Virus record (IMG/VR): IMGVR_UViG_3300035494_000066
DNA length: 64,000 bases
Source: a virus
Lineage: Duplodnaviria > Heunggongvirae > Uroviricota > Caudoviricetes
Direction: 5' to 3' (one strand)
Under the pieces are notes generated by a model that worked only from the letters and a program-made list of their open reading frames with translations, did no database searches and was not told the origin of the DNA. Positions 46,542-64,000 of this stretch are shown here, piece by piece; position 1 is the first letter of the stretch; each line of letters starts with the position of its first letter. Position numbers and translations under genes: made by a program.

Positions 46542-47420
46542 TTAAGTCCCCCAGCTGTTACCGTACAGCGAGATGTGGAGTCGCGGACTAAAACGCCAGC
46601 CTTTCTGCAGACTAATTTCAGCAACTGCAGATTCGTTAAGTTTGTATTCTTCTGACCTTCCACCAACTGGCATTACATACACAGGAACCTTAACCCCGCG
46701 CTGGGAATATTCCTGCACTGCAGATTCGACTTCATCAACATCGTCGTTATTTGCAATAACGAATTTAAAATACAAATTAGAGTTTGGTATTTGGAAATAC
46801 TGCATCGCAACGTCTGGCTTGATAGCATCTTCCCAAGCCTCGCCAGATACTGATAGCTTTGGCGAGCAACTCCATGTAACGTGTAAATCATCGCGCCGAT
46901 TTTGGAGATATGTTACAAATTCAGGCCTTAGCAGTTGTGTTGTATTAGTCTCAAACGTTAAGTTCTTGAGCTCAGCCATACGCGGATGAGACAGCAACTC
47001 AGCATAAAATCTCTGCCAACCGAGTAACGGTTCGCCACCAGTAATAACTAAGTGAATGTCTTGGCCGTTTTCTAAAGTCCATTCTCCATTTGGTGTAGCT
47101 GCTAACAAACTTTCAACAAGCTCGTCGACTGTATCGTTTTGCATGAAGCGTTTAAATTCTGGGTATATGCTAGCATATGTATCACACCCAGTGTGCACAA
47201 TGGGCAATTCGTCAAAATGTTTGTATGTATCGAGTGCATCGATGATCGGAATTACTTCCGGATTGTACTTCCCAACATCTTCGTCTTTGTCTCTGCCGAA
47301 CTTTTTGCATCTAAAATTACAGCCAAACGTGCGAAGGAATACACTAGGAACACCAACAAATTTACCTTCGCCTTGGTGACTGTAAAAAATTTCTGAATAT
47401 CGTAACGTCTTTTCCTTCAT
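46542..47420 (-). CDS. queE: 7-carboxy-7-deazaguanine synthase (QueE-like radical SAM)
   Basis: EIFYSHQGEG...VFLRTFGCNFRC...CDT, TGGEPL, ETN, SPKL, FKFVI, SPRLH; adjacent to queD. Confidence 0.85.
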   Translation of the reverse strand: MKEKTLRYSEIFYSHQGEGKFVGVPSVFLRTFGCNFRCKKFGRDKDEDVGKYNPEVIPIIDALDTYKHFDELPIVHTGCDTYASIYPEFKRFMQNDTVDELVESLLAATPNGEWTLENGQDIHLVITGGEPLLGWQRFYAELLSHPRMAELKNLTFETNTTQLLRPEFVTYLQNRRDDLHVTWSCSPKLSVSGEAWEDAIKPDVAMQYFQIPNSNLYFKFVIANNDDVDEVESAVQEYSQRGVKVPVYVMPVGGRSEEYKLNESAVAEISLQKGWRFSPRLHISLYGNSWGT

Positions 47421-47436: not shown

Positions 47437-47931
47437 TTAACCTTCGTAAATTGCAGAATTTGCCCCGTGTTCGAAGACTTCTACACTTTTAACTCGCACA
47501 GTATTGTTTAGTGCTTTACCTGCTGCTCGATCCTCGTCTAGCATGTTACTTAGCGTGTCGTATGCCAGCTGGGCAAATCTTTCGCAACCTACTGCTGGAA
47601 CGATTCGCAAATCAAGAAGTGCAGTATTTGCACCATCACGGATTGCTCCGATTTCTTGTAGCTTCATAAACGAATCTAAGTGAGGGTCGTCTTCTGCAAT
47701 TAGTACAGTGTGGTCGAACATATGTTCGAGCCATTCTTTGAATCGTTTAAGACTACCGAAGTCTTGGACCCAATTTCGCTCGTCGAGTGAATCGCATTCA
47801 AAAATGACTTTAACACCGATGCTATATCCGTGCAGTAGAGAACAGTGACTATGATGACTTCTCCACTGTCTAAAGCAACAACTCAAGCCGCGATCGTTGC
47901 CCCATGTTTTTGTACTGTAAAACTTGCCCAT
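47437..47931 (-). CDS. queD: QueD/PTPS-like T-fold protein (divergent, CxxxHGY)
   Basis: HCSLLHGY, DFG, FDH, GCERFA, VEVFEHGANSA. Confidence 0.75.
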   Translation of the reverse strand: MGKFYSTKTWGNDRGLSCCFRQWRSHHSHCSLLHGYSIGVKVIFECDSLDERNWVQDFGSLKRFKEWLEHMFDHTVLIAEDDPHLDSFMKLQEIGAIRDGANTALLDLRIVPAVGCERFAQLAYDTLSNMLDEDRAAGKALNNTVRVKSVEVFEHGANSAIYEG

Positions 47932-47940
47932 CGGATCTCC

Positions 47941-48366
47941 TTAAGAATATTTAAATTTCAGCATATATGCTAGTGCTTGGTCGTTTGTGCCAAAGTGCAC
48001 ATGTGATAATTTGCTGAATGTCTGATTTACATTATAATACAAGAATGCTCGGTTGTCTACTGGCAATTCTGACAACGATGAGAAATATTCTGAGAGGCTA
48101 GGATCTATATTTGCGATCCAGCCCGGGTAACGGGGGAATTCTCGACTACACAATTTATCGATTGATACTTCGCCATTAAACTGAAATTTTGAAGTAATTG
48201 AGCCGTCGGTAACTGTTAAGTATTCTTCCATAAGTGTAGTCATCTCGCTAATACAACCAGCTAGCTGGTCTTTGTATTTCAGCAACTCACCAAGTTGCTG
48301 AACTGGAAATATAAACCAGAATGTATCTTCTACGATTGCTCGGACGCCTGTACTGTTACTGAACAT
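47941..48366 (-). CDS. Hypothetical protein
   Basis: 141-aa ORF between the two queD genes. Confidence 0.5.
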   Translation of the reverse strand: MFSNSTGVRAIVEDTFWFIFPVQQLGELLKYKDQLAGCISEMTTLMEEYLTVTDGSITSKFQFNGEVSIDKLCSREFPRYPGWIANIDPSLSEYFSSLSELPVDNRAFLYYNVNQTFSKLSHVHFGTNDQALAYMLKFKYS

Positions 48367-48767
48367 TTGCGCGTTTCTTCTATATCAACTTTAGTAATAA
48401 TTGCATCCGTGCTCTGCAGCAGAGCTGGGCATACTACTTCTACTAGGTATTGACCCATGTTTTCTGCAGTAGGGTTAAACGATGTTACAACAGTACCGGG
48501 CGGATCTAGATCAACGAGCGAATCAGCAAACGGGTCTTCGGCCCATACTAGAAACTTATGATCCCAGTTATGCTCTAACCATTCGCACAGTAAGTCTTTA
48601 ATTACCGAAAAATCTAGAACACGTCCTACTTGATCTAGTCCAGTCTTGCTTGTGACAGTAAAGTGTACTCTATAATTGTGACCGTGTAAGTGGCTACATT
48701 TAGACTCGTGGCCGTATACACGGTGGCCGGCCGAAAAATCATGATATCGTGTTGCAGTTGTTGTCAT
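48330..48767 (-). CDS. queD: 6-carboxytetrahydropterin synthase (canonical QueD)
   Basis: FSAGH, CSHLHGHNY (CxxxHGH), LDF, DH, NPTAEN, EET. Confidence 0.88.
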   Translation of the reverse strand: MTTTATRYHDFSAGHRVYGHESKCSHLHGHNYRVHFTVTSKTGLDQVGRVLDFSVIKDLLCEWLEHNWDHKFLVWAEDPFADSLVDLDPPGTVVTSFNPTAENMGQYLVEVVCPALLQSTDAIITKVDIEETRKCSVTVQASEQS

Positions 48768-48820: not shown

Positions 48821-49360
48821 TTATTCCTCCCACGGAAACACAATCCAACTTGGGTCTTTATTCTTATCAATCGAAACGCTATAGTAGTCAACATCCTTAA
48901 AACTACTAGGTACATTATTAAATAATGTTGCAAATTTAACATTATTATGCCATGGGTTGTGTTCTTTTGCTAGCCAGCCTGCATTTGATGTCCAGTCTGA
49001 TACTAACCAGTTAAACGTTGCACCAGTGTCGTTGATATCGTCGACGACAAGTATGTTTGCAGTGTTAATTTGGTTTTGGCGAACAGTGTTATTATCGCTC
49101 TCTTCACTTTGGTAGCCAAACGCATCTTCAGCCATCCAGCAGTTTGACTCGCACTCCTCGCCGCCGGCTGCATCTCGTAACTTTATCTTAACCATCTCAC
49201 ATCGAACATCTAACATATGAGACAAAATAACAGCTGGAATGCACCCACCGCGAGTAATTCCAACAATATAGTCTGGAACAAATCCAGACTCTCGTACTTG
49301 ATTGGCTATTTCTTCACATGCAAGTGTGATATCAGACCAAGAAATGTGTGTTTTATTCAT
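48821..49360 (-). CDS. Type I purine phosphoribosyltransferase (Gpt-like)
   Basis: IVGITRGG, ILVVDDINDTGAT (PRPP-binding), WIVFPWE. Confidence 0.88.
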   Translation of the reverse strand: MNKTHISWSDITLACEEIANQVRESGFVPDYIVGITRGGCIPAVILSHMLDVRCEMVKIKLRDAAGGEECESNCWMAEDAFGYQSEESDNNTVRQNQINTANILVVDDINDTGATFNWLVSDWTSNAGWLAKEHNPWHNNVKFATLFNNVPSSFKDVDYYSVSIDKNKDPSWIVFPWEE

Positions 49361-53155: not shown

Positions 53156-54694
53156 ATGAAAAACGGCTACGACATTATTTTATTCACCGAATACGCAAAC
53201 GAGCATATATCATGCAAGCTACTAGGACCTTACCAGTTATCTAGTTTTTTACGGAGCAAAGGGTTTTCTGTACTAGTCGTCGACCATGTTTCTCGCTACT
53301 CAAAGGCAGAGATGTACATGATTGCAAAACTAGCATGCGGCGACAACACCTTGTTTGTTGGGATTAGCAACACTATGTCTTTACCGAAAGATGAAATTAG
53401 TTTCACCCACTGTGGTTTAGAGTTTGATAAAATTTTCGTCGAAGCATTTAAGGCAGTAAACCCGAATGTAAAAATAGTAGTAGGCGGCGCTCATGCTAGG
53501 TCTAACACAAGCAACCCGTTTCTAGACTATTCGGTGCTTGGATATGCCGAAATGAGTGCTTGGAGATTAGCCAAGCACTTGCGAGATCCGTTAGAACCGC
53601 TTGGACCTCATTTTGTTAACGAACACGGAGTTAAAATCTTAACTGACAGAAAAGCAGATGGTTATGACTTTACACAAACAGTTAACATGTGGTGCGATGA
53701 TGACATTATGATGCCAGGAGAAGTCTTACCGATCGAGTCTGCTAGAGGCTGCATCTTTAAGTGTAAGTTCTGCGCATATCCCATGAACGGCAAGAAAAAA
53801 TTAGATTACTTGCGAGATCAAAAGCAAGTAAAATACGAGTTAGAACGCAACTACGAGCTATACGGAATTACCGATTACTTCATCGTCGACGATACGTTTA
53901 ACGAATCAGACGAAAAATTAAGAATGTTTGCAGAAGTGTCTGCAAGCTTACCGTTTGAGTTAAACTTTAGGTGTTACCTCCGGTTAGATCTACTAGCAAA
54001 CAATTATGACCAAGTCAAACTATTAGCAGATGCTGGACTGCGTGGAACATTTTTCGGCATTGAGACGCTTAGTAATGCTGCTGGTAAAATTATCGGTAAG
54101 AGCACTAATTCAGAGAAGTTAATCGAAACGTTACAACGTATTAGATCCGATTACGGTGATACTATAATGACGTCATCTGGATTTATTATAGGCTTACCTG
54201 AAGAAACTCTCGACGAATGTTGGAATTCGTATCAACGAATTGTATCAGGCGAAGTTCCGTTGCACAATATAGGATTTCAGCCGCTTCGTATTACTAGGCC
54301 AGACTCGTTTGCATGGAATAGCGAATTTGGTGTTAATTTTAAATCATACGGATACGAAGAAATGCAATTAAGTGATGTAACATCAGAAGAAGATAAAAAG
54401 ATGTTTTCGAGCATGTTTCTAGAGCATGTGCCGTGGAAGAATAATTTAACAAACGTGTTCGAAGCTAACAAGCTGTCCGAAAAAATAATGGCCGATTTCG
54501 CCACACACGAGAACTTAGTACCGTCGAGTAATCAGGTATTTTTTGCCCGAAATTACAATATTTCTGAATTGTTAACGAATAAAACTATTAAGAACTATGA
54601 CTTCTTAGATCTTAAAGATAAGAACGTAAAACAATACAAACTTAAGCTAATGAAATACCTAACAGTTAAAAGCAAAGAACTTAACGTTCGATAG
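53156..54694 (+). CDS. B12-binding radical SAM enzyme (class B methyltransferase-like)
   Basis: N-terminal cobalamin-binding-like region (VVGGAHA, GYAE), SARGCIFKCKFC, VDDTF, FFGIET, FIIGLPEET. Confidence 0.85.
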   Translation: MKNGYDIILFTEYANEHISCKLLGPYQLSSFLRSKGFSVLVVDHVSRYSKAEMYMIAKLACGDNTLFVGISNTMSLPKDEISFTHCGLEFDKIFVEAFKAVNPNVKIVVGGAHARSNTSNPFLDYSVLGYAEMSAWRLAKHLRDPLEPLGPHFVNEHGVKILTDRKADGYDFTQTVNMWCDDDIMMPGEVLPIESARGCIFKCKFCAYPMNGKKKLDYLRDQKQVKYELERNYELYGITDYFIVDDTFNESDEKLRMFAEVSASLPFELNFRCYLRLDLLANNYDQVKLLADAGLRGTFFGIETLSNAAGKIIGKSTNSEKLIETLQRIRSDYGDTIMTSSGFIIGLPEETLDECWNSYQRIVSGEVPLHNIGFQPLRITRPDSFAWNSEFGVNFKSYGYEEMQLSDVTSEEDKKMFSSMFLEHVPWKNNLTNVFEANKLSEKIMADFATHENLVPSSNQVFFARNYNISELLTNKTIKNYDFLDLKDKNVKQYKLKLMKYLTVKSKELNVR

Positions 54695-55295
54695 TTATCG
54701 AACGTAAGTCTGGGTATTCGAACGACTGTGTTTCGTGAACTTCGTTACGTAACAGCTTGTTAATACCAACTACACACTCTTCGGGTTTCATTGCGTAGTG
54801 GAATCCGAGCTTAAATTTACGCTGATCACACCATGGCGAAATGTTTAGGTCGCGGCCGTCGTAGCGGAGTAACCTAAGCGTATTTGCTAAACTCTCATTA
54901 TCAGTTAAAATAGCACCACCGCGGCCGATTTCTAACGGTTTAGAATAACCGAAACTTAAGCACTGAATTTGCCCTGTACGGTACATATTTTTTTGAAATT
55001 TTCTAGCACTGTCCCAAATATTCGACCCGCGAAAGTTGTACTCTAATTCACTGTACCAGTCATCAGTGATGTATTCGTGGTGCACATTCAAGTTCATAAG
55101 AGTCATCGGAACACTGATATAAGTGTTCGCCGGCAGCTGAACACTTAGTATACTAGTTGCACGAAATGCTAATTCTATAGCATGTGTGCAACTATCAACT
55201 GATACAGCATAAGGTGCGCCGGTGTACTTACACACCTCTGATTCGAACTTTGTTATTGCATCAAACGGGTTGTTAAAGTCTGCTAGCTTAATCAT
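54681..55295 (-). CDS. Short DegT-like PLP-dependent protein
   Basis: AVSVDSCTHAIELA, PANTYISVP, DSA, SFGYSKPL..GRGGAILTD; only 204 aa. Confidence 0.7.
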   Translation of the reverse strand: MIKLADFNNPFDAITKFESEVCKYTGAPYAVSVDSCTHAIELAFRATSILSVQLPANTYISVPMTLMNLNVHHEYITDDWYSELEYNFRGSNIWDSARKFQKNMYRTGQIQCLSFGYSKPLEIGRGGAILTDNESLANTLRLLRYDGRDLNISPWCDQRKFKLGFHYAMKPEECVVGINKLLRNEVHETQSFEYPDLRSITIER

Positions 55296-55860
55296 TTAAT
55301 GTAACGAATGTTAATTGGATAGTGTATCGATTAGTTAAACCGATATTTGCAGCAAGGTGCGGAGTGTCTTCGGTCCAAACATATACATCACCAGCTTGCC
55401 AGTCAACGAACGTGCCTGCGATTTCTAGAATATGTCCAGGCTCTCTGTCGTCGACTGTTACCAGCGCCCGGTGCACGGTATACTGATCTGTTTCTGTTAT
55501 CCCAGCTGACTCCACATACCGACGGTATGCGATGTACGTATCAGAATGATACGGAATTATATCCCCTGGTACCATTTTATAAAAACACCAAGACAAGTGA
55601 TAGAAATCAACACCAGTCTCAGTTAGCATAGTTGCAACTTCTTCTACTATTTTGTTAGCAATACTAGGAGTACTCCGAGTGTGGTCGTACATAGTGCCGT
55701 TTGAAAACGGCACTCCTTGTTCTCTCCAGTAAGAAATAGCATGTATATCATTGAACGGTTTTGAGAAATACGGCAACGACTTAATCGCTAATCGGTCTTC
55801 AGCTGAAAGATCTATCGTTCCTAGTGGAGTATTACTGAATTGATGCTTGGATTGTTTCAT
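55288..55860 (-). CDS. 2OG-Fe(II) oxygenase-like (cupin) protein
   Basis: PYHSD (HxD)...PHLAAN...RYTIQ; start uncertain (ORF extends to 55911). Confidence 0.65.
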   Translation of the reverse strand: MKQSKHQFSNTPLGTIDLSAEDRLAIKSLPYFSKPFNDIHAISYWREQGVPFSNGTMYDHTRSTPSIANKIVEEVATMLTETGVDFYHLSWCFYKMVPGDIIPYHSDTYIAYRRYVESAGITETDQYTVHRALVTVDDREPGHILEIAGTFVDWQAGDVYVWTEDTPHLAANIGLTNRYTIQLTFVTLND

Positions 55861-56914
55861 ACAGTTTTCCACCGTTAAAGAATCGTTTGAGAGTTGCAAG
55901 CTCAGTATCAACTACCTCTTTAGCATTATCTGGGTATAGAGATAGTGTTTGCTCTACTAATTGTGCTAGTGCATCAACATCCGGAGTACTAGGTTCTGAC
56001 AGTGCAGAACTGTACTTAATGTTGTCAGAATACATTTCTGCATAACTCAAGCGGTCTGGAACAACTGGAACTGTGCCTGCTAGCAGCGCTTCGTATGCAC
56101 TAATGCCTAGTGTCTCTTGCAGATTTGCGCTAAACACAACCTTTGCACGTTTTAGCAGGCGGTGGTATTCTTGTTTTGTTAAGTTTTGTTCTTGACACAT
56201 AACAAATTCAACATCTGGCAACTTCTCAGCAATCTGTTTAAAGAGTTCGGGTTGTTTTTCCGGAGCAACGCGGTGCGGAAACAGCACAATGTCTTCTTTA
56301 GAAGAATAATCAGTATCTGTTAATGCAGACGTTTCTAAGTATTCCATCGGCCAGCCTACAACCTTAATCTGGTTGTTTGCATATGCAATTTTAAGTGCAT
56401 CCCCGGTCAAGAAAGTCTGTGCAAACAAGTTAACATGGAACGTTGTAGCAAAGAAGTTATGAGTGTAACACTGAAACATACTAGCTTCAGCAAACCGGAC
56501 CCACGGCTTGCCTCCGATAATGCGGCCTAAGAAGTCAGCAGGGTCGTAACTACCTGCGTGCCACATGCCACCAATGTTAATGTCAACGCCGTTGAGCTCA
56601 GCCATATACCGAAGTTGGATAACAGTTGGGTTCCAAGCATCAGTGAACAAAAAGTAATCACCGTTGTTGATTTTTTGTGCAGCAAATAGTTCAGCAATTT
56701 TAATTAGTTGAGAACTTTTGTAGATGTTAGTTGCAGAAAAGTCTAAAAATGCTCCAGGTGATGTAGTTGTGCTCGAAATTTCGCCCGAAATAGGAATTAC
56801 GTTAGTATCAGGTCCTAAAAATTCTGATAGTTGTTTCGGCAAAAATTCTTGCCACTCACACGTATATCGAGTTTCTACTGGCTCGATATCAACAATGTAT
56901 ACAGTTTTTGTCAT
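55832..56914 (-). CDS. GT-B glycosyltransferase (GT4-like)
   Basis: PHRVAPEKQ, QETLGISAYEA (E-x7-E), PVVPDRLSYAE. Confidence 0.8.
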   Translation of the reverse strand: MTKTVYIVDIEPVETRYTCEWQEFLPKQLSEFLGPDTNVIPISGEISSTTTSPGAFLDFSATNIYKSSQLIKIAELFAAQKINNGDYFLFTDAWNPTVIQLRYMAELNGVDINIGGMWHAGSYDPADFLGRIIGGKPWVRFAEASMFQCYTHNFFATTFHVNLFAQTFLTGDALKIAYANNQIKVVGWPMEYLETSALTDTDYSSKEDIVLFPHRVAPEKQPELFKQIAEKLPDVEFVMCQEQNLTKQEYHRLLKRAKVVFSANLQETLGISAYEALLAGTVPVVPDRLSYAEMYSDNIKYSSALSEPSTPDVDALAQLVEQTLSLYPDNAKEVVDTELATLKRFFNGGKLYETIQASIQ

Positions 56915-56932
56915 AATTGTCTCTTAAGAAGG

Positions 56933-57226
56933 AAAGCAGTGCAAATAAGCTATTTGATGTTAATTAACGGCGGAAATTACGGGCATCACGGCCCCATTGG
57001 TTAGTAACACGCTTACCTTCTTTAAACCGCAGGTAAGCCTTGTATACGTATGAACGCATATTATAAAGATCGGCTTCGTTGTAACGATAACCAAAATGGA
57101 CACAGAATTTCTTGAGTTGGTCTAGATCTGCGAAAATTTGAGATACGACTGGTTTCATAATTACTTCCTTTAATGAATACTACGTTGTGTATGTTGTTGT
57201 TTTGTTTGCTTACTTTGCACTGCTTT
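56933..57226. repeat. Long-range inverted repeat flanking a small gene
   Basis: aaagcagtgcaaa-taagc (56933-56950) versus gctta-c-tttgcactgcttt (57208-57226): 13 perfect bp plus 5 bp beyond a 1-nt bulge. Confidence 0.8.
56964..57158 (-). CDS. Small basic/aromatic protein (64 aa)
   Basis: AAGGAAG RBS; Arg/Lys/Tyr/Phe-rich. Confidence 0.7.
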   Translation of the reverse strand: MKPVVSQIFADLDQLKKFCVHFGYRYNEADLYNMRSYVYKAYLRFKEGKRVTNQWGRDARNFRR

Positions 57227-57230
57227 AAAC

Positions 57231-57626
57231 TTATTTTACTAGTTTGTACTCGATTTCGCAACCGTTTTCGTTGTCTTCGGCTACTGAAATTTTTACATAT
57301 CGGTTGGGGTATTTATGTGAAATTTCGTTGTACAAATCGTCGGCGATCATTTCGCACGATTTGTAGTCTAATGCTAGCACAGTGTCAGAATATAAAGATT
57401 CACACCAACGTTTAAACTGAATGAATTCAATGTCCCGGTCATCATGGAATACTTCGATCCACACTTTGAAATGAAAGATGTGTCTATGGGGGTATCCTAG
57501 GAAACTTACATCGTCATCGCCGCCGGTCGCCAGCGCCGGGTTGTCGAGAGCTGCTGGGTATTTGTGAATACCTTCTCGCGAGAATGTAACCCAGATTGTT
57601 TTGCTAGTTTTTACAATTTGCTGCAC
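57231..57626 (-). CDS. QueD-paralogous T-fold protein, DpdL-like putative CDG decarboxylase
   Basis: LGYPHRHIF (LxxxHRHxF), EGIH, SCEMIA, VAEDNENG; lacks CxxxHGH; the DpdL signature is recalled from the literature, not searched. Confidence 0.65.
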   Translation of the reverse strand: MQQIVKTSKTIWVTFSREGIHKYPAALDNPALATGGDDDVSFLGYPHRHIFHFKVWIEVFHDDRDIEFIQFKRWCESLYSDTVLALDYKSCEMIADDLYNEISHKYPNRYVKISVAEDNENGCEIEYKLVK

Positions 57627-57861
57627 TATGCTTCACCATTGCTTGTACTTCGTTTACTGTTATTTTAACATCATTGCTAGCGATTGCACTAGCCCGCACA
57701 CCAATCCGAGATGTAATATTAGGATTGTCGACATGCTCACCGTCGAGTAAGTTCACTGTAGCAGCAATCCCGTGCTCTTCTAGCGCTTGGTTAATAATTG
57801 CACAGATAGTTGTTTTACCCGACGCAGTTGTTCCTACAACATTAATGTCGATATGTTTCAT
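57604..57861 (-). CDS. Very small P-loop-containing protein
   Basis: 85 aa, INVVGTTASGKTT Walker A. Confidence 0.55.
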   Translation of the reverse strand: MKHIDINVVGTTASGKTTICAIINQALEEHGIAATVNLLDGEHVDNPNITSRIGVRASAIASNDVKITVNEVQAMVKHSAANCKN

Positions 57862-58424
57862 TTGTCGTTGCCTATGTTATTAACAATTGTGTCTGAATTG
57901 TATTTTGCCCATGGGGTGAATTTATCAACATCCATTAGTTCGCGTACACGATGTACCCATACGCCATAGTTTGTTGCATTAAAATCCTTGTCGTCGATCT
58001 TGATACACGCATTGTACCCGAGCTGATCTAAGTACGGCAGTTTTACTGATACCATCGGAATAAACATCGGGTGTTCAGTGCATCCAAGTTCTAAGAATAC
58101 TTCGTGCAACGACATGTCGTAGTCGAGGGTGACCCACAAGTTCTTTTCTAGCAACCCGTCGATCAAGTCACTGAGTGCATCAATTAAGTCATGATTGTAG
58201 CTACCGTCAGAGTGTAACACTGAGTCTCGCGACTTAAATGTATGGTTTGCTCCTAAGTATACATGATTAATGTTCAAGTCGTCGACTGCTTCAAGGATGG
58301 TGTTTAGTGGGGGAACTCCTGTAACAAAAAATGTAGGCATACCTTTAGCTGGAGTGTTCTCCACTTCGACCCCAATGAAGTACTTTGCAGTCGCAGATGT
58401 GGTACCGTTGTAATTGCGTTTCAT
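57858..58424 (-). CDS. Hypothetical protein in the deazaguanine module
   Basis: 188 aa; FIGVEVE, HVYLGANH, KIDDKDFNATNYGVW. Confidence 0.7.
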   Translation of the reverse strand: MKRNYNGTTSATAKYFIGVEVENTPAKGMPTFFVTGVPPLNTILEAVDDLNINHVYLGANHTFKSRDSVLHSDGSYNHDLIDALSDLIDGLLEKNLWVTLDYDMSLHEVFLELGCTEHPMFIPMVSVKLPYLDQLGYNACIKIDDKDFNATNYGVWVHRVRELMDVDKFTPWAKYNSDTIVNNIGNDK

Positions 58425-58487: not shown

Positions 58488-60017
58488 TTATTCTTGCTCA
58501 CTTTCAAGTTTATCGAGAACTTCGACTTCGGCTTCGTTGAACTCTTCGCTGTGCTCGCTCGGCTCTTCAACGATGTCAAACAGTGCACTAAACTGAGACG
58601 ATGCGTTTACAGTCTTCTTGCCAACTGCGCCTCGGGTTCCGACAACAGCCATCCATAGTGTACTGTGATCTTCAATTGTACGCAGCGCAACTTCGCGGTC
58701 GTCGATACTTAAAATGTAGTCAATGATTTCGCGAACAGCTCGTCTGTCAAACTTTTCTTCGACTAGCATAGCAGGGTAAGACCCTGAGTCGTACTGCCGA
58801 TTGGCTTCTTGTACAGCGTTAATGTGAGTCCACACGTTATGACCCATTTGCAATGCATACGAGAAACTATCCCATGACGTGCGGCCTTCTTTGCCTATCT
58901 TATTAAGATCGCCCGGTTTGTATATACAGATATCTCTAGCAAGCAGACCGTCTGTAATTGGACTATCTTGCCACAGCTTAAAATGCTTCGATGCAGCACT
59001 AGTCCACGTCTCGGTGCTTGTTGCTAGCGCCTTGTTATCAATGCTCGGCACCATTCGGTAAACCCACTTACCTCGGTGTGGAGTTTCGACGCTTGTATAG
59101 ATTTGCCCGTTTGCAGTAGCAAGGAACGGACTTGCACAGTCGAATGTAATAGTAAAACTAGGGTTGTGGTGTTTTCGGACAGCACGTTGAATGTCAGTTA
59201 AGATACATGCCCACTCGAGCTTAGATGTTCCTAGAAAGTGCATAACATCGTGTACACCTTCTTCCAAAAGACCGTCGAATTTGAGAGTAACAATTCGCTT
59301 AAGTGCTAAGTGGATGTCGCACATGTTTTGCCCACCCATTGCCCACCCATTGAAATGTTTCCCGGGATACTGCACTGGGTCGCAGTACTTCTTCATTCGC
59401 TCGTACCAGTCGTCTGCTTCTGCGTGGTTCTCGCCTTGCAAAACATTCAGGAATTTACATGCACCGGTTCGATTGTTGATAAAATAATCGTTATTAATGT
59501 AGGTGCCTTGTACAGCTTCTTCGTACGAATTAATTCCGGTTGCTTCGCGACCGCGCGGAGAGCGGCACACCCAGGCTGGGATATCTAAAATCATCCCGTA
59601 GTCCATATACGCATCCATCCAGCGCAGCACATCTTCGCGCTTCTTTTGTGCCTTAGGACAATTAGGATTCTTCCAATCACCTTCCCACACACCCTTACCG
59701 ATCTGGAACCCTCCGGAATCGCCGAGCACCCAGCTCGACGATCGGTCGCGATTTCGAATCATGTCTTCCTTAGGAGAATCTTTGTTAACATCTAACTCAG
59801 CGTGGCCTGCAGAATACAAACACCATTTGTAATAAAAGTTAGCGTTCGGGTCTAAGTAGTTAAGACTTTCAACACCGTCGGGCAAATTTGATGGAATTCG
59901 CGCTTTTTCGACGTACTCACCGAATCGTTGTTTACCGATAAACGTTGCATAGAATCCCGACAATGCCGGTAAGAACCTTGCATAGTCGAGTTGTGTTTCT
60001 GTCAAATTTTTATTCAT
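58488..60017 (-). CDS. Guanine transglycosylase, TGT/DpdA-like
   Basis: Ordered TGT motifs DSGGFQ, MILD, VLQG, GWAMGG, HFLG, TFDCASP, HN; no CxCxxC zinc site. Confidence 0.8.
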   Translation of the reverse strand: MNKNLTETQLDYARFLPALSGFYATFIGKQRFGEYVEKARIPSNLPDGVESLNYLDPNANFYYKWCLYSAGHAELDVNKDSPKEDMIRNRDRSSSWVLGDSGGFQIGKGVWEGDWKNPNCPKAQKKREDVLRWMDAYMDYGMILDIPAWVCRSPRGREATGINSYEEAVQGTYINNDYFINNRTGACKFLNVLQGENHAEADDWYERMKKYCDPVQYPGKHFNGWAMGGQNMCDIHLALKRIVTLKFDGLLEEGVHDVMHFLGTSKLEWACILTDIQRAVRKHHNPSFTITFDCASPFLATANGQIYTSVETPHRGKWVYRMVPSIDNKALATSTETWTSAASKHFKLWQDSPITDGLLARDICIYKPGDLNKIGKEGRTSWDSFSYALQMGHNVWTHINAVQEANRQYDSGSYPAMLVEEKFDRRAVREIIDYILSIDDREVALRTIEDHSTLWMAVVGTRGAVGKKTVNASSQFSALFDIVEEPSEHSEEFNEAEVEVLDKLESEQE

Positions 60018-60019
60018 AA

Positions 60020-60751
60020 TTACTTAGTTTGTGCTGGTAGAATGTATTCGTATGTTGCGTAAGCCGACTCAACAACGATCATTGCAGCGCCTTCGTCTGA
60101 AAACTTCATTGTAATTTTGCCCAGAAGGCTTAGGATTGAAAGGACTTGCTGGATAGGCCATGACCAGCTTCGAGTAAGTGTACCTGCTACATCATGTTGG
60201 AATACAAAGTTACCGGCGTGTGTCGAGTGGTCGCCGAAGTAAAACACAAGGTTGTTGTTTTCAACTCGTGCTACAAACGTTAGTTCTTCCGAGTTAGCCT
60301 GAGCCTGGAACTTGAGACGCTGAATACTAGCTTGGCTTGGTTCTAGTTCAACACCCCAGCGCACACCTTTAAACTTAACAGTTTTGAGTTTTTCTTCAAC
60401 AATTTGCTGACTCATGAAGCGATAGTCGTTTTTAAAGTCACCTTCTTTGTTTTCAAAGTGTAACCCAACCGGAACAGTAGTTCCTTCGCGATTCTGTGTA
60501 GCAGTAGTGATCTTTGCGCCTTCTCGGTATACCGGAAGATCGAGCAGAATGTTAAGTTTTTGTAAGTTCGGCATGCCGAACGTAGCATCAAACTCCGGAA
60601 TTTTGTTATTGAAATTAGCTTGCACAATAACACTCCGATCATCGGACATAGCCGAGACGTTCGGTTCACCGTCTTTATTGCTAACCTTAATAAGGTCAAT
60701 GAAACCGAGTTTGTGGGTGTGTTGTACAATGTCTAGTAGGTAATCGCGCAT
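60020..60751 (-). CDS. Putative DNA polymerase sliding clamp
   Basis: 243 aa, clamp-sized alpha/beta protein; AMSDDRSVIV resembles the PCNA N-terminal strand and YEYILPA resembles clamp C-termini; near the polymerase. Confidence 0.6.
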   Translation of the reverse strand: MRDYLLDIVQHTHKLGFIDLIKVSNKDGEPNVSAMSDDRSVIVQANFNNKIPEFDATFGMPNLQKLNILLDLPVYREGAKITTATQNREGTTVPVGLHFENKEGDFKNDYRFMSQQIVEEKLKTVKFKGVRWGVELEPSQASIQRLKFQAQANSEELTFVARVENNNLVFYFGDHSTHAGNFVFQHDVAGTLTRSWSWPIQQVLSILSLLGKITMKFSDEGAAMIVVESAYATYEYILPAQTK

Positions 60752-60754
60752 TAA

Positions 60755-61618
60755 TTAGTCTTCTCCATGGTTTATGTGGCCCAAAGTTTGGGCAGCTCTA
60801 TTCGTTTTTAAGACACCTTGCTTTTTAACAATAGCGTAGCTTAAATTCGGATTATGATCTGTTAGTTCTATTATATCTAATTTAGACTCCGCTGTCAACT
60901 GTTTAATCATGTCATCGGTACAAAAACTTCGCATTGTGTGTTCTGCTAAAACGCAGCTTTCGTATACATTACAGTTATTGTATGTAAAAATAAATGTTCC
61001 CCCGGGTTTTAATAGCGATTCTATTTTAAATAACGTATTTCTAATCTGATTTATATCACAGAACTCAAAGTAACCGATCGAAACAGCTGTACCAAACTGT
61101 CCGACGGGTAGATCATTTAAGTTATTATACAGCCTAATACGCCTTTTGTACACAGGATTAAACTGATCCCGTATACGAGTGAGTGTTAATTTAAACTTCG
61201 AAACCATATATAGCGGGTCAGCAGCTAGCATTTTATTAGTATAAGTACCGAGTACTGGCTCGTAATACAACGCAGGGTGCTGCCAAGAGCAATTTATGTT
61301 TATTTTTTCTGCTAGAATCTGATGAATTGTAGTTGCATAGTCGACATAGTCGAGCTGCTTGTATACTGTAGTCGGATTGTTAAGATCGGAAGAGAATCCG
61401 GTTAGTGTTATAGAGTCCCGGAGTGCAGCAAGTCTTTTCTGTTCGGCACAAATTTCTAAATCAACATCCGCAATTGCTGCCGAGAGCTTACTCAGACTAT
61501 TTGTGTCAGGTATAATACCTGTCACTGCTGCAGTTAACGCGTTAACTGCAGCAGTGACTTCTGTGGTATTAATTGCGTTTATCGAATTTAGTTTTAAAAC
61601 GTAGTCGCTTCGTTTCAT
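60755..61618 (-). CDS. Class I SAM methyltransferase-like protein with N-terminal coiled coil
   Basis: LPVGQFGTAVS...LLKPGGTFIFTY; motif I degenerate; start taken at ATG 61618. Confidence 0.5.
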   Translation of the reverse strand: MKRSDYVLKLNSINAINTTEVTAAVNALTAAVTGIIPDTNSLSKLSAAIADVDLEICAEQKRLAALRDSITLTGFSSDLNNPTTVYKQLDYVDYATTIHQILAEKININCSWQHPALYYEPVLGTYTNKMLAADPLYMVSKFKLTLTRIRDQFNPVYKRRIRLYNNLNDLPVGQFGTAVSIGYFEFCDINQIRNTLFKIESLLKPGGTFIFTYNNCNVYESCVLAEHTMRSFCTDDMIKQLTAESKLDIIELTDHNPNLSYAIVKKQGVLKTNRAAQTLGHINHGED

Positions 61619-61631
61619 ATGCACTACTCTA

Positions 61632-62618
61632 TTAGAAGTCGAACAAAGAATCGAAGGTTGATGCAGTATCAGTGAGTTCTCGTAAACCCCAATTAAGCAC
61701 ACCGAGTAAGTTGTCTACTTTTTGGTCAACAATTGCAGTTAGCATAGCAGCATCGTCGAACGGAAGTTCTTTAAACCATGATGGCAAATGCGGTTCGTCA
61801 ATTGGATATGCAATTGACGTCAGACCAATTGGATTTGGTTTTAGTTTGCACACGATAGTCTTTTGCCCGTCCATAATCGGCATACTGTAATTATCTGCAT
61901 TCATCCGGCGCAACATGTTCCAATTAATTGCTGCTCGCACATGTCCAGGTACTGTTCCTTTTTTACCAGAATTCACCTGATTTGTGAATTTTGTTAAGTT
62001 GTTAACCCGCTTTGGTGTGCCTTTGTGCCACGACGGCTTACTTTTAAAGTTGACTTTAAAGTCACGGATTTTTTCAGCAATAGACTCAGGATCTTTACCG
62101 ACCAAACAGTCCTCGAGGATTTCTTTAAGAAACTCTTGCATGTAGTCCGGAGTGTCACTGCGCTTAAGATCAAGCCCCATTGCTTTAATTTTACCCGGCT
62201 TGCCGCCGACGTCGACACGTTTCCCTTCGTCGTCAATTACAAGCAATGCATATCGTTTCTTCTTTATAAAAATGCCGGACTCAGCTACAACTTCGCGCCC
62301 GCACTTTACAATTTCACCAAACGATTTTGGACAGTTAAATGCTCGTTTCATGAAGCTCGGGAAACTATCACTTACTTGGTCGCCGATTTGATCATACAAT
62401 GCAATTGCAGTGTCTTTGTTCCATTCCATATCACCTGCAGCTACAGCAGCTTTTACTGCGGGCCAGGCACTGAAGTAACAAGAGTCGGTGTTATGAACAA
62501 GGATACCGTTTGCAAAAAAATACGGGTCTTGTTCCTTCATACTTATGTCGTATACATACTCTTCGGTTTCGCCGATGCACTCGACACTAGTTACTTGTTG
62601 TCTTTCGGTTTGAGCCAT
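61632..62618 (-). CDS. Family B DNA polymerase C-terminal part fused to a split-intein C fragment
   Basis: 43-aa IntC, then TDSCYF (DTDS motif), KKKRYA, KAMGLDLKRSD, HVRAA, terminal FDSLFDF; own RBS AGAGGA. Confidence 0.92.
   Translation of the reverse strand: MAQTERQQVTSVECIGETEEYVYDISMKEQDPYFFANGILVHNTDSCYFSAWPAVKAAVAAGDMEWNKDTAIALYDQIGDQVSDSFPSFMKRAFNCPKSFGEIVKCGREVVAESGIFIKKKRYALLVIDDEGKRVDVGGKPGKIKAMGLDLKRSDTPDYMQEFLKEILEDCLVGKDPESIAEKIRDFKVNFKSKPSWHKGTPKRVNNLTKFTNQVNSGKKGTVPGHVRAAINWNMLRRMNADNYSMPIMDGQKTIVCKLKPNPIGLTSIAYPIDEPHLPSWFKELPFDDAAMLTAIVDQKVDNLLGVLNWGLRELTDTASTFDSLFDF
62490..62618 (-). mobile_element. Split intein C fragment (IntC, 43 aa)
   Basis: Block F YVYDISM, block G FFANGILVHN, followed by Thr+1. 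Confidence 0.92.
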
Positions 62619-63553
62619 TCTTTACATTCCTCTAATACAGCAGTAGGGTCATCGATATAATCCTGTTCCCATACTACTAATGTTTCTATATTGCGCTCTT
62701 CTAGTAGCGCATCTATTTTAGCTGTGTCTTGCATCCACTTGTCGCGAGCAATAGTATCAGTGCACCTGTTGTAGTAGTTCTCTTCATATATAGCAGGGTT
62801 ACTGTGCCAATAGTCGCCGTTAAATTCGATTGCCCGGTTGTTATGAACTACATCGTAAAAGTACGGTCGGTTGTTAGTCGATGACCAGATACAATACTGC
62901 TTAGTCCTGCATGAAAAGTCTAAGCTAGTTTTTAGCATCTCTTCGAGCCGTAAGCAAAAACTTTCCTCTAGCGCACTAATTGAATGTCTATTAGTATGCA
63001 TTGCTTGCGATATAGCCAACGCGTCGTCGATGCTGCAATTATTCCGCTTCATTATAGTCTCAATACTGTGACCTTTTGCGCGGTTTAATTCCTTGTACTT
63101 GTCTTCTCCCATTTCGCCGTACTTTTCGACAAAATATGTTAGAGTATTTGTATATGCTTGTCTAGCCTTGTACTCATTCCATCTTCGTAAGCCGTCGGTT
63201 TCTCCGTGCTTGTTAATCATGGATTCTAGTGTTACAGCTCTGCTTTTGTTAAACTTGTTAAATTGCTCCTCAGTCCACCTGTGCTTTTTGCGTTTGTATT
63301 CTAAGGAATTAGATTCTGCTTGCTTAGCTTTATACTCGTTCCAGCGTTGTGTCCCTTCTTCTTCGCCGTACTTAGCAATCATATTAGCTTTAGTGACGCC
63401 TGTTCGCTTAGCGAGATCAGCGTCAACTAAAATTGCTCCCGGGTATGCAGCTTTGTACTCTGTGCCATTGTTAAATCGACCAGAGCAGTTGTATTTAAAG
63501 TGTGTCCATTGTAAGCGGCTTGCTTCGTAGCCGCACTCCTTACATTTTGGCAT
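62591..63553 (-). CDS. Free-standing Vsr-like (PD-(D/E)XK) putative homing endonuclease
   Basis: C-terminal S..E...YD...IEFNGDYWH...D..K...VVWE; N-terminal CxxC and three K(Y/H)GE...G repeats; different frame from both polymerase halves. Confidence 0.8.
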   Translation of the reverse strand: MPKCKECGYEASRLQWTHFKYNCSGRFNNGTEYKAAYPGAILVDADLAKRTGVTKANMIAKYGEEEGTQRWNEYKAKQAESNSLEYKRKKHRWTEEQFNKFNKSRAVTLESMINKHGETDGLRRWNEYKARQAYTNTLTYFVEKYGEMGEDKYKELNRAKGHSIETIMKRNNCSIDDALAISQAMHTNRHSISALEESFCLRLEEMLKTSLDFSCRTKQYCIWSSTNNRPYFYDVVHNNRAIEFNGDYWHSNPAIYEENYYNRCTDTIARDKWMQDTAKIDALLEERNIETLVVWEQDYIDDPTAVLEECKEWLKPKDNK

Positions 63554-63579
63554 ATGGTGCTATCTCCTGTCTCCATAAA

Positions 63580-63586
63580 TATTTAT
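63580..63586 (-). promoter_or_regulatory. Possible late promoter ATAAATA for the endonuclease
   Basis: Minus strand aATAAATAtttat upstream of RBS GGAGACAGGAG and the ATG at 63553. Confidence 0.5.
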
Positions 63587-63744
63587 TATATCAAAAAACA
63601 ACTAAATATTGATATGAAACAAGATGAAATTGCTGATATCATAAAACGTTACGACATAGCTATGTAGGAGACTGCTAATGCACGGAGCATTTGCGGAAAT
63701 AGTAGCACGTATCTAAACGTGCAGAAGCAGTCGAAACGGTAAGA

Positions 63745-64000
63745 TCAATTGATCCCCGAAACCGTAATAAGTAAATCCCCTGCTACTAGTTCAGCTGGTT
63801 TGACTTCTAGTGTAAAACCATCTCGGTCAACAATGACGCTATGATCTTCTGTTACAGTAACAGTTGACCCGTCTTGACTCGTCACTTTGTACAGTTTCTT
63901 CTTAGCTTTGTGTCGCATTACATACGCCATTTCGCCATAAACCGAAGTATCTTCAAACGCATTATACCCTAGTGCTTTAATCGGTTGACCGTCTGTGCCA
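63745..64000 (-). CDS. 3' end of the presumed polymerase N-terminal gene, encoding the split intein N fragment (runs off the window)
   Basis: Frame open to the window edge: GTDGQPIKALGYNAFEDTSVYGEMAYVMRHKAKKKLYKVTSQDGSTVTVTEDHSVIVDRDG...KPAELVAGDLLITVSGIN-stop; block B TxxH. Confidence 0.85.
   Translation of the reverse strand, partial: GTDGQPIKALGYNAFEDTSVYGEMAYVMRHKAKKKLYKVTSQDGSTVTVTEDHSVIVDRDGFTLEVKPAELVAGDLLITVSGIN

Follow-up and report, generated by a model that had tools for sequence, protein, structure and literature searches.

The clamp and transglycosylase-like genes

The stretch of DNA analysed here, hereafter the window, is 64,000 nucleotides long and comes from the Caudoviricetes virus record IMGVR_UViG_3300035494_000066. 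It corresponds to positions 200413-264412, read on the minus strand, of the 302.5-kb contig of a jumbo phage, whose CheckV completeness is 85%. On the minus strand of the window, a piece of a DNA polymerase gene is followed by an open reading frame (ORF) of 287 or 315 codons, by a gene for a sliding clamp and by a gene for an enzyme resembling tRNA-guanine transglycosylases (TGTs). We focused on this enzyme, which carries near its C-terminus a short peptide similar to the one that ends the polymerase. The features of the locus are as follows.

61632-62618, minus strand: C-terminal piece of a split family-B DNA polymerase, identified from its translation; matches phrog_1918 (E-value 2e-50) and phrog_262 (E-value 3e-47), both DNA polymerase, and weakly the Pfam families Intein_splicing and DNA_pol_B
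60755-61702, minus strand: ORF between the polymerase and clamp genes, 315 amino acids from a GTG start, more likely 287 amino acids from an ATG at 61618
60020-60751, minus strand: sliding clamp of 243 amino acids with a PCNA-type two-domain fold; matches phrog_12062, a family with no annotated function
58488-60017, minus strand: predicted base-exchange enzyme of 509 amino acids, DpdA-like and placed in the TGT superfamily from its fold, profile-profile alignment and catalytic residues
58557-58628, minus strand: disordered linker of the enzyme, residues 464-487, with a predicted local distance difference test (pLDDT) score below 50; contains the basic stretch GTRGAxGKK and the motif
58572-58601, minus strand: candidate clamp-interaction peptide SSQFSALFDI, residues 473-482, from translation, conservation and the complex model
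58578-58592, minus strand: core of the peptide, F476, L479 and F480, from translation
58491-58577, minus strand: acidic C-terminal tail, residues 481-509, with 13 D/E among 29 residues and a predicted helix at 495-508

The clamp and enzyme genes are tightly linked. As an earlier, sequence-only reading of this DNA had stated, the enzyme gene starts 2 nt past the clamp stop codon, the junction being AAG TAA TT ATG. Elsewhere in the genome, a clamp-loader homologue was detected (genome 174749-175666; phrog_168, E-value 4.8e-79). A megablast search with the locus gave no match among GenBank phages.

The sequence-only reading had staked its interpretation on a clamp fold for the ORF at 60020-60751, and this fold was recovered. 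The AlphaFold2 model, built with 38 homologues, has a pLDDT of 81.6 and a predicted template modelling (pTM) score of 0.82, and the three clamp copies of the complex model described below reach a pLDDT of 88-89. Foldseek returned at least 500 matches in the PDB, and among the matches listed all are PCNA chains, the best one being yeast PCNA (E-value 1.6e-9, TM-score 0.70). The protein, of about 240 residues, folds into two domains joined by an interdomain connector loop at about 122-131, and its homologues number more than 7,800. In phage PA5oct, the clamp homologue is EST35_0314 (L001:4915-5661; profile E-value 1.5e-54), which is annotated as 'structural protein (ESI-MS/MS)', a label that is probably misleading. 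In phage Phosso, the 'virion structural protein' upstream of the enzyme gene was considered as a clamp and rejected; the true clamp homologue follows the polymerase gene, elsewhere in that genome.

The enzyme was modelled with higher confidence (pLDDT 92.4, pTM 0.91). A catalytic body (about 10-420) is followed by a helical region extending to about residue 457, by the disordered linker, by the motif and by the acidic tail. With this model, the top Foldseek matches are all TGTs, Zymomonas mobilis TGT having an E-value of about 6e-7. Structural alignment with VIA-align to Thermotoga maritima TGT (PDB 2ash) gives a Z score of 18.9 for 309 aligned residues, with a root-mean-square deviation of 4.6, and the archaeal, mouse and human TGTs score within 1 Z unit of it. 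Profile-profile alignment points the same way: hhalign against Escherichia coli Tgt (probability 87%, E-value 4e-6) pairs the enzyme stretches DSGGFQ (D100), LDIP (D145) and FDCASPF (D293) with TDSGGFQ, FDEC and FDCVMPT, respectively. Residues D100-S-G-G103, D145, H260, G263 and D293 are invariant in 93 homologues with 26-74% identity. From what is known of the Z. mobilis and E. coli enzymes, we take D100, D145 and D293 to be the general acid/base, the substrate-binding aspartate and the nucleophile.

Hence, the label 'TGT-like' given by the sequence-only reading holds for the fold and the catalytic residues, though no curated family profile detects the enzyme. The enzyme represents a distant branch of the TGT superfamily missed by curated profiles. 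It shares with tRNA TGTs (Tgt and ArcTGT; PDB 2ash, 1q2r and 1iq8) the TIM barrel, with Z scores of about 18-19 over about 300 residues, as well as the DSGGFQ, LDxx and FDC stretches and the aspartates aligned with those of E. coli Tgt. It differs from them by an identity of only about 13-16%, by additional insertions, by the C-terminal helical region, linker and motif, and by a gene context of replication and DNA modification. The branch is large: an exhaustive search found 952 representatives of 50%-identity clusters at E-values up to 0.001, and a word-filtered search, with a ceiling of 8,000 candidates, at least 7,735 matches among 90%-identity clusters. One homologue, P0363 (L105:10001-11407), lies on a 731-kb cellular contig, between two integrase genes and near the gene of ribosomal protein S9; the family is therefore also found on cellular genomic islands.

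A peptide shared by the enzyme and polymerase tails

The sequence-only reading had observed that the polymerase ends in ASTFDSLFDF and that the enzyme contains SSQFSALFDI, and both peptides are exact. The polymerase piece ends with ...DTASTFDSLFDF, ASTFDSLFDF occupying 61635-61664 directly before the stop codon. The C-terminal part of the 509-residue enzyme reads ...KKTVNASSQFSALFDIVEEPSEHSEEFNEAEVEVLDKLESEQE, in which SSQFSALFDI corresponds to residues 473-482. Residues 464-487, which include the motif, form the sole low-confidence stretch of the enzyme model (pLDDT below 50). The 29 residues that follow the motif contain 13 D/E and a single K/R, and residues 495-508 are predicted as a helix with a pLDDT of about 75-80. 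The 'disordered acidic tail' of the sequence-only reading is thus acidic, and disordered around the motif, without being disordered throughout.

In 120 close homologues, nearly all sequences read GTRGAxGKKTVNASTxFxxLF[DE] in this region, G460-T-R-G463, G466-K-K-T469, F476, L479 and F480 being nearly invariant. One subclass of 486 residues stops directly past the motif (ending ...FNNLFEEV) and has no acidic tail, which is therefore dispensable there. As a separate observation, the far C-terminal acidic segment (residues 490-509; 58491-58550) is itself conserved and predicted helical, with the consensus ...F[TS]EEEEHKLEELEDEQL; it might mimic DNA or provide a site for a second partner.

At the level of loci, the motif was followed in 80 IMG/VR loci, in which the pattern [FY]xx[LF]F is found in 74 of 79 complete enzyme tails, FxxLF in 71 of 72 complete polymerase tails and a clamp gene in 79 of the 80; these loci are close relatives (61-74% identity), and the counts are not independent events. 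Independent support for the motif comes from about six lineages, in which the two tails compare as follows.

The window: polymerase ending TFDSLFDF; enzyme with QFSALFDI followed by an acidic tail
PA5oct: polymerase ending HFDSLFGW; enzyme with SFNSLFDV followed by an acidic tail
Vibrio phage 2.275.O: polymerase ending NNTDLFDW; enzyme ending NNNDLFGW
Metagenome contig L005: polymerase ending TFFEF; enzyme ending SLFEF
Contig L006: polymerase ending KLFNY; enzyme ending SLFEF
Phosso: polymerase ending FNDLFTF; enzyme ending EGLF, a loose likeness

Across these six divergent lineages, the enzyme motif varies in concert with the end of the polymerase, which we regard as the strongest argument drawn from sequence. 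PA5oct, 2.275.O and Phosso all combine a clamp homologue with an LF tail on the enzyme. On the other side stands a distant relative from Vibrio phage vB_VcorM_GR7B (L010:5791-7407, 'TGT domain-containing protein'), which ends in a lysine-rich tail of about 45 residues with no LF motif; a search of the GR7B genome with the profile of the clamp found nothing. The lysine-rich tail may be a different means of holding DNA. The motif is also absent from the cellular homologue P0363.

A more distant set consisted of 104 full-length representatives of 50%-identity clusters, with 1000 shuffles of the tails as the null. F..LF occurs within the last 60 residues of 18 of the 104, against a shuffled mean of 1.5 and a maximum of 6; in the protein bodies of the same representatives its frequency is 0.7% per 60-residue window. 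Similarly, [LMF]F is found within the last 8 residues of 34 of the 104 (shuffled mean 6.4, maximum 16). The PA5oct enzyme homologue carries the motif at 37% identity, and many relatives at 30-45% identity have F..LF or terminal LF-x-[FWY] tails. Conservation among homologues, which the sequence-only reading had proposed as a check, is therefore found in close relatives, in PA5oct and in many more distant relatives, and fails in the cellular homologue and in that of GR7B. Taken together, the enrichment in tails and the co-variation with the polymerase rule out chance similarity.

A motif of this kind could also serve the enzyme itself, for instance by inhibiting it, by making it oligomerise or by controlling its turnover; it would then resemble the polymerase tail through convergence on a common short hydrophobic pattern. 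Short F/L-rich motifs easily arise, and the acidic helix 495-508 could fold onto the DNA-binding face of the enzyme. The type of tail nevertheless tracks that of the polymerase across the six lineages, and the region of the motif is predicted to be disordered rather than packed on the body. In one related locus (L093), where the motif is gone from its usual place, a new FTNLFDE has been re-created as the very C-terminus, and the 486-residue subclass stops directly past the motif, like clamp ligands of the T4 type. For these reasons we hold a purely internal role of the motif to be distinctly unlikely. In another locus (L083), the usual motif is degraded to FQNHY and the protein ends in ...DNSLWEI.

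A scan of all 302.5 kb of the genome for F-x-[SA]-L-F gave only six stop-to-stop ORFs of at least 50 amino acids, two of them being those of the polymerase and the enzyme. A third one, of 327 amino acids (genome 195066-196049; L002:11067-12050), lies upstream of the polymerase, past the end of the window, and contains an internal NSFSSLFDS. No family was recognised for this protein, and neither the phage collection nor the fetched loci yielded a homologue; it may be a further client of the clamp. An ORF of 182 amino acids (genome 95937-96485; L106:1938-2486) ends in KFDNFFGI, resembling the FDSLFGW that ends the PA5oct polymerase. It was tried as a gp55-like positive control and dropped, its homologues in KVP40-like Vibrio phages being hypothetical proteins. 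A possible N-terminal copy of the shared peptide, MFNELFDF, opens the product of NVP2275O_469 (L004:9723-10835; weak amidoligase-like Pfam match, E-value 1.8e-4), which directly follows the enzyme gene in Vibrio phage 2.275.O.

Predicted docking of the enzyme tail on the clamp

The check by structure prediction that the sequence-only reading had suggested, clamp trimer with peptide, came out in its favour for the enzyme peptide. Three copies of the clamp were modelled together with enzyme residues 455-509. Runs 1 and 2 gave a complex score of 0.68 and run 3 one of 0.67, as against 0.00 for the best of three controls; the mark applied to this score is attained by 58 of 80 solved complexes and by 2 of 110 mismatched pairs. 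Between runs, 67% or more of the contacts recur, and the pLDDT of the partner is at least 53. On the enzyme side, the modelled interface involves residues 468-476 and 478-485. On the clamp side, it is made of residues 38-42, 119, 123-130 (the interdomain loop), 155-158, 197, 199, 220-222 and 237-243 (the C-terminus), most of which are invariant or nearly so. The contacts with the lowest predicted error are those of L479 and F480 with clamp residues 125-130, 220-222 and 237-239. In the model, this site corresponds to the canonical peptide pocket of PCNA-type clamps, below the interdomain loop.

The co-variation of the two tails indicates a common partner and does not say which one. The shared peptide could bind the clamp loader, the single-strand-binding protein or the helicase, or else an open subunit interface of the clamp rather than the pocket on its face. 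There is a precedent for the latter: in solution, the T4 gp43 tail is reported to prefer the open gp45 subunit interface to the pocket on the face, where the RB69 crystal shows it (PMC2988020). Against these possibilities, the hydrophobic-acidic C-terminus of the polymerase is a clamp ligand in every T4-type system studied, the clamp gene abuts the enzyme gene and belongs to the same locus in nearly all of the related loci, and the modelled contacts fall on a conserved, canonical pocket. A different partner or site is, in our view, unlikely, and docking of the enzyme in the face pocket of the clamp is the reading that we retain.

The proposed interaction has well-studied counterparts. In T4, gp43, gp55 and gp33 have hydrophobic-acidic C-termini that are interchangeable, are borne on variable linkers and attach these proteins to gp45 (PMC2988020), and T4 ligase binds gp45 by an internal LDFLF loop with a dissociation constant of about 10 uM (PMC6212786). 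The peptide described here resembles those of the T4 and RB69 gp45 clients in its LF core, its acidic neighbours, its flexible linker of variable sequence and its position, either very C-terminal or internal. As in those systems, the cognate family-B polymerase bears the same peptide, and the modelled site is a hydrophobic pocket on the clamp face. In contrast, the client is here a predicted DNA base-exchange enzyme, fold search places the clamp nearer to PCNA than to gp45, and the motif has an extra upstream phenylalanine (F-x-x-L-F).

Tails of the same kind on T4 gp33 and gp55 make the clamp a transcription activator (PMC2988020). By analogy, the enzyme tail might act mainly as a regulator: it would compete for clamp sites with other clients, such as the polymerase, for instance in timing a late-infection switch, instead of delivering catalysis. 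The catalytic aspartates invariant across the family and the retained pathway genes argue for selection on an enzymatic function, and tethering is a simpler use of the tail. We give a mainly regulatory tail hardly any credence and favour delivery of the enzyme to DNA by the clamp.

Eukaryotic enzymes provide a second parallel, in which a short clamp-binding peptide recruits a base-acting enzyme to freshly replicated duplex DNA. DNMT1 and UNG2 are tethered to PCNA by PCNA-interacting-peptide (PIP) boxes. MUTYH binds PCNA through a PIP box, and bacterial and eukaryotic clamps bind many repair enzymes via QL[SD]LF or PIP motifs (PMC9690074). These enzymes are unrelated to the one studied here and use a different motif, Qxx[ILM]xx[FY][FY], so that no evolutionary link is implied. 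A search of the literature found no paper that ties DpdA or any DNA transglycosylase to a sliding clamp, and no modification enzyme of such a class as a clamp client.

Deazaguanine genes and coupling to replication

About 10 kb downstream of the enzyme gene, and on the same strand, the window encodes enzymes of 7-deazaguanine synthesis.

46542-47420, minus strand: QueE, matching PA5oct QueE (E-value 2.7e-24)
47437-47931, minus strand: QueD/PTPS (PF01242, E-value 3.4e-27, above cut-off)
48330-48767, minus strand: second QueD/PTPS (PF01242, E-value 4.4e-18, above cut-off)
48821-49360, minus strand: phosphoribosyltransferase adjoining the QueD genes (PF00156, E-value 3.5e-14)

FolE is encoded elsewhere in the genome, and QueC and QueF are not encoded in it. 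Homologues of the enzyme are found in similar surroundings. In 2.275.O, the gene adjoins those of QueF, QueC, an amidotransferase, FolE and a YhhQ-type transporter; on metagenome contig L007, it adjoins a FolE gene and a QueE-like gene; in PA5oct, the homologue (EST35_0316) is near the QueE gene. The DNA of PA5oct resists several restriction enzymes, a pattern read by the authors of that study as modified G, and their paper names only QueE- and QueD-like genes (PMC12191111). EST35_0316 is an obvious candidate for the base-inserting enzyme of PA5oct.

These surroundings bear on whether the substrate is DNA, as the sequence-only reading had supposed, or tRNA. The nearest solved folds all belong to tRNA enzymes, and many jumbo phages carry tRNA genes together with queuosine-pathway genes. 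The enzyme could then be a TGT that reprograms host or phage tRNA, the clamp-like motif being irrelevant to its substrate. In four divergent lineages, however, the gene lies in a replication module, between those of the clamp and of the primase/helicase or the deazaguanine-synthesis enzymes. The CxCxxC zinc site of canonical tRNA TGTs is absent from the enzyme and from all 93 family members. In addition, PA5oct DNA shows modified G (PMC12191111), and every phage known to have 7-deazaguanine DNA encodes a DpdA-type transglycosylase (PMC10516641). A tRNA substrate therefore seems very improbable to us.

Among transglycosylases acting on DNA, the relevant comparison is with DpdA (bDpdA and the phage or viral DpdA1-DpdA4; PMC10516641). 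Like them, the enzyme belongs by its fold to the TGT superfamily and is phage-encoded beside 7-deazaguanine synthesis and replication genes. DpdA3 is the most distant subfamily, is encoded near a polymerase gene and achieves complete replacement (PMC10516641). The enzyme shares with it the distance from the Pfam TGT family, the proximity to a polymerase gene and a pathway without QueC, that is, at the level of 7-carboxy-7-deazaguanine (CDG). It differs from DpdA in being missed by the PADLOC models as well as by Pfam TGT, and in its tail: a clamp-binding tail has been described for no DpdA. In Campylobacter phage CP220, a carrier of DpdA3, neither our family profile nor a back-translated DSGG[FY] pattern found anything, and Pfam TGT likewise found nothing there, so that searches of this kind are too insensitive for the comparison with DpdA3.

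The 7-deazaguanine modifications of phage DNA have been called post-replicative, with no coupling mechanism named, and the replacement of a large share or all of the guanines within one infection cycle is unexplained (PMC10516641). We propose the following mechanism. The enzyme would exchange guanine in phage DNA for a 7-deazaguanine base supplied by the FolE-QueD-QueE route. Since the genome lacks QueC and QueF, the base in question is probably 7-carboxy-7-deazaguanine itself or a compound derived from it. The disordered C-terminal linker would present [ST]-x-F-x-x-L-F-[DE], followed by acidic residues, and the clamp would receive the peptides of both the enzyme and the polymerase in the hydrophobic pocket beneath its interdomain loop. 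Through clamps loaded in the course of replication, the enzyme would be brought to nascent duplex DNA and kept on it; base exchange would thereby be coupled to replication in space and time, with a presumed gain in the efficiency of modification. We consider it likely, on the whole, that docking on the clamp couples deazaguanine insertion to replication in this manner. The clamp-riding enzyme of the sequence-only reading is supported computationally by the clamp fold, by the conservation of the motif and by the complex model, and none of the tests that it had named as able to refute it went against it, as far as computation can run them.

Several observations weigh against this mechanism, beyond the close relationship of the 80 IMG/VR loci. 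Among the 104 distant representatives, 58 lack a tail motif when simple patterns are used; several of these have looser LF-x-[FW] variants and others clearly none. The tail of the Phosso enzyme is only loosely like that of its polymerase. Solved PCNA-peptide complexes are abundant, and the success of the complex model may therefore stem from likeness to them; the model suggests that the enzyme peptide looks like a clamp ligand, which is different from binding itself. As to the enzyme, no usable match was found in Pfam, PHROGs, NCBIfam or the PADLOC DpdA models. At the curated cut-off of the Pfam TGT family (PF01702), neither the enzyme nor any of the 93 homologues matched, and sequence searches of the PDB with the single enzyme or with the 93-sequence profile gave chance matches only. 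The distant GR7B relative has a sub-threshold match to PF01702 (24.1 bits for a cut-off of 26.3). The assignment to the TGTs therefore rests on the fold and on profile-profile alignment. The missing zinc site, which speaks against a tRNA substrate, also counts here: with neither that site nor a profile match, activity and substrate rest on the fold, the three aspartates and the gene neighbourhood. Lastly, the phosphoribosyltransferase gene beside the QueD genes may leave room for a nucleotide-level route to the modified base.

If coupling by the clamp holds, a clamp-docking peptide on a transglycosylase would offer a concrete coupling mechanism for the insertion of 7-deazaguanine in phages, and would add a new functional class to the clamp clients. 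It would also provide a candidate inserter of the modified G for PA5oct-like therapeutic Pseudomonas phages, and the tail motif could flag replication-coupled DNA-modification enzymes in phage genomes. The analysis also brings to light a large branch of the TGT superfamily overlooked by curated profiles.

A more general version can be put forward, which we consider doubtful at present. Clamp tethering could be a general device by which a very large group of jumbo phages, most of them uncultured, replaces a high proportion or all of its guanines by a hypermodified 7-deazaguanine. The enzyme would ride the clamps behind the fork, and its conserved acidic helix may be a DNA mimic keeping it off DNA until the clamp engages the tail. 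If true, viruses would use the sliding clamp as a platform for DNA hypermodification of an epigenetic-like kind, a counterpart of DNMT1-PCNA in eukaryotes.

Neighbouring genes and the interrupted polymerase

Between the enzyme gene and the deazaguanine-synthesis genes, the region downstream of the enzyme contains the following features.

53156-58424, within this interval: an ORF of 188 amino acids, a P-loop protein of 85 amino acids and a phrog_17812 protein of 131 amino acids
55832-56914: GT1 glycosyltransferase
55288-55911: protein with a weak likeness to Asp/Arg hydroxylases
54681-55295: short ORF resembling DegT-type aminotransferases
53156-54694, strand opposite to that of the enzyme: B12-binding radical SAM enzyme

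With such neighbours, the inserted base may be modified further, possibly by glycosylation. In PA5oct, a GT1-like gene directly follows that of the enzyme homologue.

The ORF at 60755-61702, between the polymerase and clamp genes, has no family in Pfam, PHROGs or NCBIfam; there is a hint of Methyltransf_11/12 only, below the cut-off (E-value 0.14). In the gene order of PA5oct, its counterpart is missing at the same position.

The family-B polymerase is encoded in at least three pieces, distributed over 61632-64000 of the window and 196631-200668 of the genome. The N-terminal part lies at genome positions 196631-198247. It is followed by a gene for an HNH/homing endonuclease (genome 198244-199941), within the interrupted region. 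The same region includes a piece of 245 amino acids with an intein-N-like end and a gene for a Vsr-like endonuclease of 320 amino acids (window 62591-63553), and the C-terminal piece opens with an intein C-segment. The polymerases of PA5oct and of contig L006 are interrupted in a similar manner.

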